Positions 6,756 through 13,899 of a stretch of DNA of 64,000 bases are shown piece after piece. The notes below the pieces were generated by a model. The model did not search any database. It was given only the letters and a program-made list of their open reading frames with translations, and was not told the origin of the DNA. Origin of the DNA: Octopus vulgaris. Taxonomy: Eukaryota. A program made the translations under genes and the position numbers. Position 1 is the stretch's first letter; each line of letters starts with the position of its first letter. The stretch spans positions 110,422,001 to 110,486,000 of the forward strand of contig OX597817.1 in the NCBI GenBank assembly GCA_951406725.2, written 5' to 3'.

Positions 6756-7862
6756 GTAAGTGCTTTTAACTTCTCTTGTTTTTCTCCTTGCTTCAGTTTA
6801 AATTATTGTTATTCAAAATATAGAATAAATAAACTACTTAAGGCTTTTGATAATAGAATAATAGAAGTACACATTTAGCAGCTTATTTTCAAAATATTAT
6901 TTCTTACATATTTTTTTTTCACATATTTTCACAAAATATTTTTCTCACATATGTAAAAAAAACTTTGCTTATAAGCAAGATGAAAAAAAAATGACCAGGA
7001 GTGAAAAATATTTAATGTAGTGTTGATAATACTCTTTGTTATTACCAAGTATTACTGATCTCTGATGTATACACTCATACATTGAAATATCTATATATAT
7101 GTATATATATATATTTCACTAAACTATGATGCAATCTGTTTGTGTATGTGTTCATCTAAGCATCTGTCCCCCACTATCTATTTCAATCTTTTTTTTTTAT
7201 GTGTCTATCCATCTTTACCTGTATTTACAACTATGCAATTCATTGACTTATGCATATGCATCTGAACTCGTATGAACTTGTATCTGCATTTGCTAATCAT
7301 ATAGTTACCTATTTATCTTGTTGTGTCTGGGGAGAGTTAGATTGTCTTAATACCTTATTATCTAACACATTTACCAGTTTGATTTCCACTTATTATATAT
7401 ATATATATATATATATATATTTCTTTTATTTCTCTCTTTCTCTCTCTACCTTGCCAGCTCCTGTCAAACTGTCCAACCCATGCCAGCATGGAAGATGGAC
7501 ATTAAATTATAGTATGTATGTACATATATATATATGTATATGTATAAAAGTTAAAGAGAAAGTAATAGCCCAATTAATTAGGAACAGAATTAGGCTAGAT
7601 GAAATGCAGTTTGGCTTTGTGCTGGGGAGAAGCACTACTGACACTATTTTCATAGCCAAGCAACTGCAAAAGAAGTTTATAACTAAGAATAAGTTGGAGT
7701 AAAGATTGTTTGCCAACATAACATGGCAGTCGTGGTTTAGGATGAATGTTACTATAATTTAACCCTAGGAGACAATCATCTTCAGCTGGCTATTCATCAC
7801 AGTCTGTGTCCTTATATTTTCAAAGAAGGGAATCTAGCATCCCCACTCAGCTCAAAACAATA

Positions 7863-7907
7863 TCTATGTATTGCAATTTCCTGGTTATTTCCCTTCATCA
7901 GCACAGA
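7863..7907 (-). ncRNA. Minimal hammerhead ribozyme
   Basis: UCUGUG-CUGAUGA-AGG(GAAAUAA)CCAG-GAAAU-UGCA-AUA^CAUAGA; 6-bp helix I, palindromic helix III AUUGCAAU, weak helix II. Confidence 0.65.
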
Positions 7908-8096
7908 ATAATTGTTCAGCTTGAGGTGAATTCTTTATTATGATTATACAATCAGTACACAGATGGGACATTACAATTACAAAAATGTTGAGTTCAAATG
8001 GACGTTTAAAAATTTTAATATAATATATATGATTGACTTAACTTTTAAAGTATCTTTTTTCTTAAAAAAAAAAGAAAAGAAATAAAAGAAGCAAGT

Positions 8097-10855
8097 TCAA
8101 ACTTCATACCCAGCAACTAACTTTTTCCTTTCATTGATGAATAAGCTGGGTTTACTGACACCCACCTTTCTCATCACATCCTTCTGTTTCTCATACTCTC
8201 TTAGCAGCAGGGTCTTCCTCTCCAACCCCATCTTGCTCTTCAGATGGTATCTGAAGTAGGTTAACAAACCTGGGCCAGAGACGAAGGAACCTGTCACGAA
8301 ACCTTCCATTCTAGCTTTCCAGAGATGTCTCAGCCTCAACACATGTCCGCACATCATTAACCAAGGCATTCCCAGCCTGCCCTTTAACGGTTCCTGGCAG
8401 CAAATGGAGTGCCTTACAAGTGGCTTTCCTCCCTTCCACAAATAGCGGAAAAGGAGTTGTTTCCACTTGTTTAGCCATGAATCGGGGCAAGGGACAATGG
8501 TCGGGCAGTAAGTGATTACAGATGCCATAAACACCTGTATCACCTCCACCCTTCCTTTCAAGGTCAGAGCCCTTCCGGACTACTTCCATACTATGGCCTC
8601 TACCTTGTCTGCCACCTCACTCCAATTCTTCTCCATCAGAGAGTCTGGGCCAAACCTAACTCCAAGCAACTTAACATCTGTCCAGTGACTCACAAAAGTG
8701 GACGATATCGACTTGCTCCTCCAGATGCTGAGGTGCAAGCCGATGGACTTGTCCTTATTAACTTTTGCCCCTGCCACTGCTTTGTATCTTCTGAGAACAT
8801 CTTCACAAGGTAGCTGTGCTTTGTTAGACATGATGAAGGTGACGTCATCCGCATAAGCAGAAACAGACTTACTGCATCCGATTTCATTAGGGTTGCTTCC
8901 CAACTTCTCCAACTTCTGCAGCAATGGCGCTAGAGCCAATACATACAGAAGCGGAGACAAGAGACACCCTTGACAAACTGAGCACTTGATCGAAAACGGC
9001 TCCATCAGGTAACCGTTTATCTGGACTGTGGACTTGATGCCACTGTACATAGCGGAGATCCACCTGCGAAATCCAGGGCCCTGCCCAGCTGCTTTGAGGA
9101 CCACTGCTAGGTACCGATGGTCTACCTTATCAAATGCTTTACTTCAGTCTAAATGGACCATTGCCCCTCCTTTGCCAGCTAATTTCCCAACCCTGTCTAA
9201 AGTGTAGCAGAGAAGGTGAAGATTATCCTGGATTGACCTGCCTGAGATTACACATGTCTGTGCCTTCCCTACAAGTTTCTCCACAACAGCCATCAACCTT
9301 TTCGCTAACACCTTGGCCAAAATCTTTAACTCTACATTAAGTAGAGTTATGGGCCTGTAATTGCTAATATTATCCCCCTTGCTCGAGTTTTTCTGGACCA
9401 GCGTCACCACTCCCCGGCTCACACAACTGGGAACCTTCCTATTCTGTTGCCAGTTTGCATAGACGCCTGCCAGTATATCTCCGAACAAGTCCAGCATACA
9501 ATGATAATACTGATAGGGCAGACCATTCAGCCCCGGCGACTTTTCCCTGGCACACTCGGCTAACGCCTCTCTTACCTTTGTGGGAGTGATCCGTCCTTTA
9601 CAGTACTCCACCTCACGTGCCAAGAGTCGCTGCCCACCAGCTAGGAAGACCTTCCCACGCTCAAGCGAACCGCCCACCCCCACCCCCGAACAACTGGGTG
9701 GAATGCTGGTGAAAGACTTTCTGCATCTCTTCCTGTCCATAGATCTTATGCCCCCGTTCGTCCATTAAAGACTTTTTACTTCTCTGACTCTCCACACAAC
9801 ATGCCCATCCGGCAATGTTAATGTCTTTTCATTTCCCTGCACATAGCTTAGCTCTAACTTTGCTACCTTCATGCTTGGAGTTGAGGTGATGGTACAAGAC
9901 CATTCTCGTCACCTGCACTCTAGAGGCAGAGCCAGATTCCATCGCCTTGTCTAAGTTCTTAACTAAATCACCCTCTATTCTAGTCCTATCTAAACTTAGC
10001 TGTTTGCTAAATCTAATGGACTCCAAACAGATGGCTCTTTCAAGAGCGTGCCACCATCTATTATTAATGATGGTGCCACATAATGCCCTCTGTACTAACA
10101 CCTTTATCCGGGTACGAAAGGTTTCACACGTCAAAATAGACTTCTTCATCTTCAAGTATCCGGGTCCCTGTCTCTGATATTTATCTACATGTAACTCGCA
10201 CGTCACAAGTTTGTGATCCATGTAAGGCACAATACAAAACTGTGAATAACTAAAAGTATTCTTATCTCTTTCCCTAACGGCTACCCTATCTAAGCGTGAG
10301 CTGTCGTTGTTACTCCACGTCCACTGTGGAACGCTTGGCTCATCCAGTCAGTAACAGTCTACTAGATTAAAGCTGTCTAGTAGACTCTTGAGGCTAGGAT
10401 TCCCTTTCCTATCAGTTGAGCCAACACTATCGACCCACGTATCGAAGATAGTGTTAAAATCCCCTACCAGAACTACCGTTTTTGACATCACTAGAAAGTG
10501 CTCCAGGTCTTGAAAAAGAAAACTGACTGCCCATGCTCGTTAGGAGTGTAGACAGCTACTAACCTGAAGGATTGCTTACTCACATGGGTCACATCCAGGA
10601 TGACCAGCCTACCTTCTGGGTGCAGAAAGACAGTACTTTCCTGATAAGGAATGCCACGCCCACTCCTCTTCCCCGGCTAGGAGAAATAAATTTCTCGTAA
10701 CCATTCAGAAGAGGCGAGAATGCTTGAGGTCTGCTCATCTTGGACTCAGTTGCAATAGCCACATCTATTCTATGTGTCCTGAGGTCATCCAGGAAACAAG
10801 CCTGTTTCCATTTCAACCCCATTCCATGCACATTTACACAGCCTAACTTAATCAT
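8097..10855 (-). pseudogene. L1/Tx1 ORF2 (AP endonuclease + reverse transcriptase), frameshifted
   Basis: MIKLGCVNVHG...IATES (APE N-terminus), DHKLV, KSPGLNGLP, NYRPITLLNVELKILAKVLAKRL, QGCLLSPLLY and AYADD motifs across several frames. Confidence 0.93.
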
Positions 10856-10929
10856 AGATGAATGAAAAATATTCTACTGGCGGTTGAGAGAGAAAGCATG
10901 ACAGTTTTTGTCTGCCCGCTTCCTCGACA

Positions 10930-12299
10930 CTCCCCGTAGCTGCTAGGCTTTTCACCGGCGTTGCCACCAGGCTCTGGGTTGGTGTGGCTAATGATTAGTT
11001 TGCCCGCTATCACCTCTTAGGTAACGTCTTTTATATCATTGTCTTTTAAATGTTCTTCAAGGAGTTTTTCCTTCCATTCCTCCTCTCCAACTTTTGCAAA
11101 GTGAACATCAGACCCACTGTCCGCCGTTTTATTAAAAAGTTTTATCTTTGGTTGAAATTTTATATATCGTAAAACCTTCTCGTTTTTTTTTGTTAAAGAT
11201 GATGTTATCAGTTTTTTTAAACCCTTTTAAATTTGGTGGGTGTGGTTTGGTGAACTGTTGTCCAATTAACGTAGTGCCAGTGGGGTGGGATTGGGGAATT
11301 TTTTTGTGTTGTTTGTCTGTAGTTGTATTTTTTTTTGGTTTTGGTGGGTGGGGAGTCCAGAGTGTTTGATTTCTTCTGTTTGTGCGTTACTTGGGTAAAC
11401 TCCATCTCTTCTGTTGCCTCTTGTGTGTTTTCTTTTGTTTGTTTTTTTTTTCATTTTTTTCCTTTCGTTGGTATTATTTCCACTTGTCTGTCTTTCTCCA
11501 TGTTTTGAGGAGAGGCTTCATTCTCTTTTTCTTAGTACACTTAGAGCGAACATGGCCCTTCTGCCCACATTTAAAGCATCTGGGCCTACGTCCCTCTACC
11601 GATACACAAATTGTATGCCCCTCCCCTACAAACACTCTATCAGGCTAATTTTCTAGTGTCGCGTTGTCTGCTTGAATTACCATTTCTAAAGCTTATCCAC
11701 TCCAGTTCACCAGTTCCTTTTTCCTCATTTGCAGGATTGTGATTTTCCCTTCCATGTCGTACACTACTGCCCCTGCTACCTACATTACTTTGTACCCTAC
11801 CAGAATTTCCTCTACTGTCACCTTTGTGGTCCTGTGATCCAAGTATGTGGGCAGCAGCATAATTTCCTCATTCTTCAAAGTCTGTGTCGACATATCCTTG
11901 GCTATGCTAGCCGACTCGAAATGTGCCTCAATTGTGGCACTTCTTACTCCTCAGCTAACGTAACATATTTTATTCCAAATAGGCGCCATGCACCTTTCCA
12001 TTACTTCGTTTTTTACCTCTATTATTCTTTTTTTTTAAATATTGTAAACCTTGTAGATAACTGTTTTTTCCTTTATTGCTTGTACAGTTTCAGGGGGTAG
12101 CACCAACTTGGTCTCCTCTCCACTTTTTCAATTAAACTCCTAAACTGGAATAGTTTGTCCATAGCTACTTCAAGTTCAATAACGTTTCCACCCACATTGG
12201 CCAAAAAACTCTGATTTTCCCTGGTATCCTTAAATTTTCACTCGGTTTTCCTTCTCCCACCTCAGGAAAGTCCTGTTTTAATGCAAGGTCAAAATCCAT
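10930..12299 (-). pseudogene. L1/Tx1 ORF1 with CCHC zinc knuckle, disrupted
   Basis: Minus-strand translation of 11537-11578 gives CFKCGQKGHVRSKC, preceded by VSVEGRRPR. Probable ATG at 12299; the 3' end is approximate. Confidence 0.75.
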
Positions 12300-12764
12300 G
12301 TTGAAACTTGTCACAAATGACGAGAAAAAATTTTCAGTAAAATAACCCGTAAAGGTTAACAATAAACAGTTCACAAAAATTATGACAATATTCAGAAATT
12401 TTTTGCCCCGTAGGGCAAAAATTACTGTTTGTCAAACGACAACAATTCAAATCCACATAAAGTATATCACAATAGCACAAATGTACAAAAACACAGACAG
12501 AAACGAACTCACATAATGTTGGGTAGCAAAAATTAAAAAATTGATGTGTCGCAAAAGAAAAATTGTTCAACTAGAGGTGGCGCTGCCAAATTCCTGTTCG
12601 AAATATATAGTTTTCAAAGTAACAACTTGTCACTGATCTATAAATAAAAAATTACTATTTGTAAATCTCACAACGAGATATTTGGCAACAGTACTTTGAA
12701 GTAAAGATTGTTTGCCAACATAACATGGCAGTCCTGGTTTAGGACAAATGTTGCTGTAATTTAT

Positions 12765-12809
12765 TCTGTGCTGATAAAGGGAAATAACCTGGAAATCGTG
12801 ATACACAGA
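12765..12809 (+). ncRNA. Hammerhead ribozyme copy with mutated core
   Basis: UCUGUG-CUGAUAA-AGG(GAAAUAA)CCU-G-GAAAU-CGUG-AUA^CACAGA; inverted paralogue of 7863-7907 with G8 changed to A. Confidence 0.6.
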
Positions 12810-13899
12810 CATTGTTTTGAGCTAAGTGGGGGTGCTAGATTCCCTTGTTCAAAAATATAAGGACACAGACCATGTTGTATAGCCAGCTGGAGATGTTGTC
12901 TCCTAGGGCTAAATTACAGCAACATTCATCCTAAACCAGGACTGCCATGTTATGTTGGCAAACAATCTTTACTCCAAAGTACTGTTGCTGAATATCTCTC
13001 ATGAGATTTACAAACAGTAATTTTCTAAGAATAAGTTGTTGTACTTGGCATTTGTTGATCTGGAGAAAGTCTTCGACAGGGTACCTCTGTAAAGAGTACA
13101 CTCTATAAAGGGGGTTGGTGTTAGAAAGGCTATCCAGTTGTAGAAACCATGCCAAAACAGACAATGGAACCTGGTATGGCTCCTAGCCTTGCCAGTTCCT
13201 GTCAAACTATCCAACCCATGCCAGTATGAAAATCAGATGTTAAATAACGATGATGTATAAATGTGTGTATGTGTGTAAAATTAAAATCAACATCACCATC
13301 AATCTATTTCACTATATACTTCACTGAGGTGATCTAAGGAGACTGAAATGTGTCCATTGCGTTCATCTGTCGACTAAATGATGAAATCCATTCGAATTTG
13401 TATTATCTTTACTTGTTTCAATTATAGGACTGCAGCCATGCTAAGGCACTGCCTTGAAGGGTTTAGTCAAACAGATTGACCTCAGTATTTATTTTTAAGT
13501 CTGGTACTCATTCTATTAGTCACTATTTTGCCAAACTACTTAGTTATGGAGACATAAACAAGCTAACACTGGTTGCCAAATGGTGGGGTCACACACACAC
13601 ACACACACACATTTATATGATGGGCCTCCACACTTTCCATCTACCAGATTCATTCACGAGGCTTTAAGTCAGCCCATGGCTATATAGGGTATGCTGTAAA
13701 GAATTCCTAATTATTTAAATAAGTTTATTTTATCAAATTTAGTTTGAAATTGCAGAAAAATAATTAAAATGCACTCCTCGGTGATTGTTCATGTACACTC
13801 CATTGTTTGTTTACATTCGGTGAGTAAAACATTTCAAAATGGCTGCTAATAGGCCAAAAAAGTAAAGCACATTCACAGGCTCAGTGTTCACTGGGTATG

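Follow-up and report, generated by a model that had tools for sequence, protein, structure and literature searches.

A Tx1-like LINE at predicted snRNA-type start sites of hammerhead retrozymes and of U1 and U2 genes in Octopus vulgaris

A 64,000-nucleotide stretch of the Octopus vulgaris genome (assembly GCA_951406725.2, contig OX597817.1, positions 110,422,001 to 110,486,000), referred to here as the window, contains three mobile elements nested in one another. A long interspersed nuclear element (LINE) of the L1 group lies inside a repeat that carries a hammerhead ribozyme, and this repeat lies inside a fragment of an RTE-type reverse transcriptase (RT). The original prediction, made from the letters of the window alone, had described this nest, and comparison with the whole genome (2.8 Gb, 227 contigs) shows that it is real and that all its coordinates are correct. 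The outer host, which we take to be RTE from its motif, is only an RT fragment of about 220 bp on the plus strand. Its frame runs across a 14-bp target duplication of the hammerhead repeat, the two copies of which (7683-7696 and 13025-13038) are identical. The left half (7541-7696) and the right half (13027-13089) join into a frame that matches uninterrupted RTE-type RT elsewhere in the genome with 61-80% amino acid identity (61-66% for the left half and 70-80% for the right, against loci L124, L133, L137 and L192). Dispersed repeats resembling short interspersed nuclear elements (families D17 and D20) flank the fragment at 7445-7526, 13098-13264 and other positions.

Without the LINE, the inner repeat consists of 350-nt units in partial tandem and an inverted, truncated copy. 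Downstream of the LINE, on the minus strand, a unit made up of head, hammerhead and body occupies 7697-7909 and is cut short after about 213 nt; it forms a 90% identical inverted match to 12761-12977 and is 88-93% identical to family copies. The tail of the preceding 5'-truncated unit is found at 12645-12763 (minus strand; 92% inverted match to 12910-13027), and the inverted copy at 12761-13024 (plus strand) holds a second hammerhead with a mutated core at 12765-12809. The first hammerhead is of the minimal type I and lies at 7907-7863, as had been proposed, on the same strand as the LINE and with helix I three positions from the target duplication of the LINE. Its predicted cleavage site, position 7869, is 60 nt past position 7929, in agreement with the proposed distance of about 60 nt from the LINE 3' end. 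The identification rests on the core motif, together with comparison with 32 family copies, because Rfam gave no family at the gathering score over the window. Relative to those 32 copies the hammerhead is decayed by substitutions in helices II and III, and the canonical three-way junction was not obtained when it was folded.

The inner repeat fits the non-LTR (non-long terminal repeat) retrozymes, and ribozyme activity is predicted from its sequence. Its tandem non-coding units fall within 150-450 bp, each has a type I hammerhead, and a long duplication is present. Tandem 350-nt type I hammerhead units, the partial tandem with an inverted 5'-truncated copy and the long duplication are likewise described for non-LTR retrozymes and for the pseudo-LTRs of Penelope-like elements (PLEs) in passages of PMC7229834, bioRxiv 10.64898/2026.07.22.740005 and PMC8557442, the arrangement being that given in the Fig. 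2 legend of the last. It has been argued that non-LTR retrozymes descend from PLE pseudo-LTRs (bioRxiv 10.64898/2026.07.22.740005). In contrast to what is reported below, term searches of the retrozyme papers (PMC7229834; bioRxiv 10.64898/2026.07.22.740005) returned no description of a promoter or of a LINE parasite. The family is abundant, with 3362 first-look candidates (40 scored); each unit carries a minimal type I hammerhead, and units in tandem at a spacing of 350 nt are found at locus L301. The earlier description of the repeat as PLE-like therefore stands as far as its structure is concerned, but no linked PLE open reading frame (ORF) was found: the search for an autonomous partner, with an RT and GIY-YIG ORF joined to the pseudo-LTR, gave one GIY-YIG match among the 80 longest of 137 flanking ORFs. 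The GIY-YIG PLE family to which this match belongs is itself abundant (L139:999-1580, minus strand) and has many open frames of 775 amino acids. No canonical hammerhead core follows its ORF in 12 loci, and its repeats differ from the targeted repeat in L139. Three further observations concern the retrozyme family. A short diverged fragment related to it is present at 2871-2941 of the window. At about 1950-1985 of L062, a retrozyme copy has a short duplication of the head targeted by the LINE with no LINE in between, possibly an aborted insertion. Over the inverted retrozyme at L068:1400-2300, A>G and T>C differences are in excess among RNA reads from a related organism, which is compatible with adenosine-to-inosine editing and is not separable from species differences.

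The LINE occupies 7930-12560 on the minus strand. At 4.63 kb it agrees with the predicted length of about 4.6 kb and is shorter than its full-length relatives (5.2-5.5 kb) through an internal deletion of about 600-620 bp at about 8320; it is otherwise full length. It is a decayed copy with broken ORFs. The ORF1 remnant (10860-12299, minus strand) was placed by homology to full-length relatives, with its start at 12299 and its end approximate, and the ORF2 remnant (8097-10855, minus strand) retains endonuclease and RT with the C-terminal part deleted. An AATAAA motif lies at 7939-7934, 4 nt from the LINE 3' end, and no poly(A) follows, as had been noted. The proposed 19-bp duplication around the LINE (7910-7928 and 12561-12579) is present with 17 of 19 positions matching. 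Sister copies suggest that it is really 20 bp, with 7929 and 12580 included and a C>T change. The 3' copy (7910-7929, minus strand) corresponds to the first nucleotides of the retrozyme head, and the 5' copy (12561-12580, minus strand) contains the predicted +1 A at 12578. A GTGAGT motif resembling a 5' splice site is located in the 5' untranslated region (UTR) at 12507-12512 (minus strand). It is conserved in most of the full-length copies shown, 64-94 nt from the start of the duplication, and one may speculate that it helps a long RNA to escape snRNA-type (small nuclear RNA-type) termination.

The LINE family is large (16698 candidates, 150 scored) and retains intact ORFs, including many open ORF2 frames of 1130-1166 amino acids. 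It also forms tandem arrays at a spacing of about 5.3 kb in which the copies are separated by the host head. The intact relative L188 has the features of the Tx1 clade of the L1 group: a zinc-knuckle (zf-CCHC) ORF1 and an ORF2 with APE endonuclease, RT and a C-terminal zinc motif (EN-RT-zf-RVT). Preference for a target sequence, with target duplications, is likewise a Tx1 trait found here. The closest solved structure to the protein of a relative is human L1 ORF2p (E 4e-66, versus 4e-23 for R2). Neither the homologues listed (at least 120) nor the 10 clusters inspected included a named Tx1 reference, and the nearest named protein homologue was from Argonauta hians. Relationships within the family were taken from an RT tree of 35 copies with near-complete RT, a within-family tree with a midpoint root and no outgroup. 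One young clade in it (L189-L192, L194, L196, L197, L217-L220) has intact ORF2 frames of 1138-1166 amino acids, long tandem arrays and targets that do not carry the upstream motif discussed below; the copies shown have no GTGAGT in the 5' UTR. One of its targets (L284:951-2135) is a non-coding repeat of about 1.15 kb with 1458 candidates and a 38-bp inverted repeat near its ends, and downstream of the insertion site this repeat resembles the 5' part of another LINE. At L183:1307-1323 the 5' and 3' duplication copies differ at 2 of 17 positions, in an element that shares about 99% identity with its sisters, and the RNA head may be the source of the 5' copy.

LINE copies were picked by their own sequence and not by their flanks. 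A hammerhead core follows 17 of 46 LINE 3' ends under a strict descriptor, compared with 0.7% of random positions in 200 kb, and 25 of 46 under a relaxed descriptor, compared with 6.7%. Nearly all of these cores lie 26-34 nt downstream of the LINE 3' end. The 46 ends exclude six of the initial 30 loci, namely the self-match and five loci with no recognisable 3' end; L107 is misoriented in this count and its relaxed match is spurious, and the strict match of the window was scored at the wrong register. As judged by eye, 8 of 9 copies in the subfamily of the window have a hammerhead repeat next to their 3' end, in some cases a degenerate one, and at least four families of repeat are involved. 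The insertions fall in several unrelated retrozyme families at the same site and on the same strand, and each has its own duplication of 12-22 bp, around full-length copies and around 5'-truncated copies of 1448, 1136 and 551 bp. The site is empty, with the target head in single copy, at 9 of 29 other loci of the retrozyme family and in three tandem units of L301. Many other copies of the LINE share the site and the adjacent hammerhead rather than having unrelated flanks, and none of the 71 recognised LINE ends (among 81 loci) has a run of six or more A residues. The suggestion that the family targets the ribozyme repeat is supported by these many independent insertions.

The same site preference extends to snRNA genes. 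Rfam applied to 34 flank sources identified only U2, plus one 5S gene away from the insertion site. A whole U2 gene (model positions 1-192) follows the intact copies L200 and L212, and L302 likewise. A whole U1 gene follows the copy at L300, and U1 heads space the tandem copies in the U1 cluster. The U2-inserted copies are within 0.5% in RT of the retrozyme-inserted copies L183, L207 and L211, and the sequence of the target head tracks subfamily on the RT tree. Why would closely related LINE copies insert both in snRNA genes and in ribozyme repeats? ATCAGT is found at -57 to -61 in 48 of 48 U1 and U2 loci. Of 35 insertion sites defined by their duplications, 20 have the same core between -54 and -63, compared with 1.3% in control DNA, and another six, all in one family, have a variant with two mismatches at -59. 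The core of the window, ATCAGTG (12631-12637, minus strand), is also at -59, and a predicted TATA-like AT-rich box (12601-12609, minus strand) lies about 30 nt upstream of the predicted +1. In empty retrozyme units the distance from motif to predicted start is 58-59 nt in 15 of 15 pattern matches. The set of 35 sites was reached by dropping nine rows (five tandem junctions, two simple repeats, one doubtful site and one duplicate) and adding five. The core was also seen in a wider interval at 16 of 25 anchored 5' ends (window included), a count that has no matched control and is not used as support. A conserved element about 60 nt upstream of +1, common to the U1 and U2 genes of the host, corresponds in position to the proximal sequence element (PSE), the known core element of vertebrate snRNA genes at about this distance (described in PMC4494074). 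The feature common to most targets is thus a putative promoter, an snRNA-type start site, and not the ribozyme.

It is probable that the insertion site of this target-specific Tx1-like LINE family lies 2-4 nt ahead of the predicted +1 in snRNA-type promoters, those of U1, U2 and many retrozyme families, and that the LINE is itself likely transcribed from the promoter that it has landed behind. Between the U2 duplication and the LINE, the copies at L200, L212 and L302 have an extra 14-nt head that matches the retrozyme head of L204. Captured heads of this kind begin at the predicted +1, which would suggest transcription from a retrozyme promoter; on the simplest reading, the master of the U2-inserted copies was an insertion in a retrozyme whose RNA began at the retrozyme start. 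In the proposed cycle, the host promoter would start a chimeric RNA with a host head of 14-20 nt, and this RNA would run past AATAAA into the duplicated host head. The endonuclease would then nick a similar head elsewhere, and the read-through tail would anneal to the nicked strand, a substitute for poly(A):T pairing. Reverse transcription would therefore start at the end of the element, and each subfamily would stay with heads that share its sequence. An insertion would become a new master only if its start site is live. An snRNA-type promoter has been reported for newt satellite 2 (PMC2220036), and it has been proposed that co-transcription with the target can strengthen targeting (PMC4494074). 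The hammerhead is likely not needed; its proximity follows from the layout of retrozymes, in which it lies 26-34 nt past the start.

Several points weigh against this explanation. Nine of the 35 insertion sites have neither the motif nor its variant at the required distance, and a young clade (L189-L192, L194, L196, L219), nested among copies that target retrozymes, inserts elsewhere: one of its targets has a TATA box at about -30, and another is the multicopy 1.15-kb non-coding repeat. The distance test was not blind, as the first A of the duplication was defined as +1. The U1 and U2 loci are cluster copies that represent about eight promoter types, several insertion sites share one retrozyme family, and L200 and L302, which belong to one cluster, may be duplicates of each other. 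The pairing of a read-through tail is drawn by analogy with other target-specific LINEs. RNA reads from the related organism, which are unstranded and mostly less than 95% alike, gave no usable start or end on an intact copy and an empty retrozyme; family-like reads are present in this RNA with no informative ends. The one pile-up of reads, at L068:1744, marks the boundary of a rearrangement specific to that locus.

How the site is chosen can be explained in more than one way. In a broader account, which we regard as rather unlikely, the LINE lineage targets a class of promoter instead of a sequence: tethered to the snRNA initiation complex, it would cut at +1 of any PSE-driven unit (U1, U2 and retrozymes), swap 5' heads between hosts and have shifted lately to other start sites. 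In the narrower form of tethering, a LINE protein would bind SNAPc or an open start site and cut at a fixed distance with little regard to sequence. The nick-site sequences do differ between subfamilies while the distance to the motif stays at 57-60 nt at most motif-bearing sites, the non-PSE target at L192 has a TATA box about 30 nt upstream, as at a start site, and control DNA contains many copies of an 8-nt motif of the head (241 sites over both strands of 258 kb, four of them with the upstream core). Tethering with little regard to sequence is nevertheless unlikely. The head sequence tracks subfamily, and the same 258 kb, both strands included, contain a single match to the 10-nt version of the window head, so that sequence alone could suffice. 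At L204 the LINE sits at a unit with the motif at -50, displaced by a 9-nt deletion, while the neighbouring unit is unoccupied and has the normal spacing; the deletion may be younger than the insertion. On these three grounds, sequence recognition together with pairing of the read-through tail is preferred.

The original prediction also suggested, as one possibility, that the ribozyme is used for 3'-end formation; in that reading, cleavage about 60 nt downstream would take the place of polyadenylation. The hammerhead is on the same strand and at a fixed distance in many copies, poly(A) is missing from all 71 ends, and a read-through RNA trimmed by cleavage could be left with a tail that resembles the target. 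However, the 3' junction is fixed 2-4 nt after AATAAAGA and is followed by the local target sequence, and none of the LINE ends has carried the 60 nt up to the cleavage site to a new location. AATAAA is kept throughout, and the same young subfamily inserts at U2, with relatives at U1 and in tandem arrays, with no hammerhead downstream. The hammerheads are minimal, that of the window is decayed, and weak hammerheads can need a dimer, according to PMC7229834. A role of the ribozyme in 3'-end formation is thus unsupported and quite improbable; trimming of a read-through RNA could still occur, and nothing here requires it. That the LINE and the hammerhead moved as one composite unit, or met in a one-off chance insertion, has only the look of this single locus in its favour and is refuted by the empty sites, the separate duplications in unrelated retrozyme families and around truncated copies, and an enrichment of about 50-fold over control.

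Target-specific Tx1 elements are already known, both in U2 (Keno, at an internal site; PMC4640811) and in other transposons (PMC4494074). As described in these two papers, Keno is a U2-specific member of the Tx1 clade and, like the family studied here, an APE-type LINE at a fixed U2 site, and Keno and Utopia share with it tandem insertion and a precise 3' boundary. They differ in that Keno and Utopia share a 3' flank, of which U2 nucleotide 39 is the first position in Utopia. In the present family the cut precedes nucleotide 1, so that the 3' flank is not that of the Keno site but the whole U2 (model 1-192) or U1, and retrozymes make up most of the targets sampled. PMC4494074 describes insertion into a multicopy transposon for Tx1L in Tx1D, Tx1-Mar in Mariner-N4 and Tx1-9_AMi in Harbinger; there too 5'-truncated copies demonstrate independence, transcription from the flank has been proposed, and some Tx1-Mar copies carry U1- or U2-derived heads. 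In contrast to these families, the targets here are several unrelated retrozyme families plus U1 and U2, united by a promoter motif at a fixed distance. Newt satellite 2 is likewise a hammerhead repeat transcribed from an snRNA-type promoter (PMC2220036, citing Coats et al. 1994). That case is experimental and from a vertebrate, whereas the promoter proposed here is deduced from sequence in an invertebrate and concerns many families. Among the papers listed, taken by title and start of abstract, none describes a LINE that inserts at +1 of U1, of U2 and of many retrozyme families alike.

For many families of animal retrozymes at once, these results provide a candidate promoter that they would have in common with snRNA genes; such a promoter was previously shown only for newt satellite 2. 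The LINE would persist by alternating between snRNA genes, which are essential, and a decoy that is abundant, dispensable and under the same promoter. The use of a decoy bears on how elements keep their specificity for low-copy targets, a question raised in PMC4640811. The intact young copies make the choice between endonuclease specificity and promoter tethering directly testable, and head capture may be a possible route to snRNA-headed retroelements such as SINEU.

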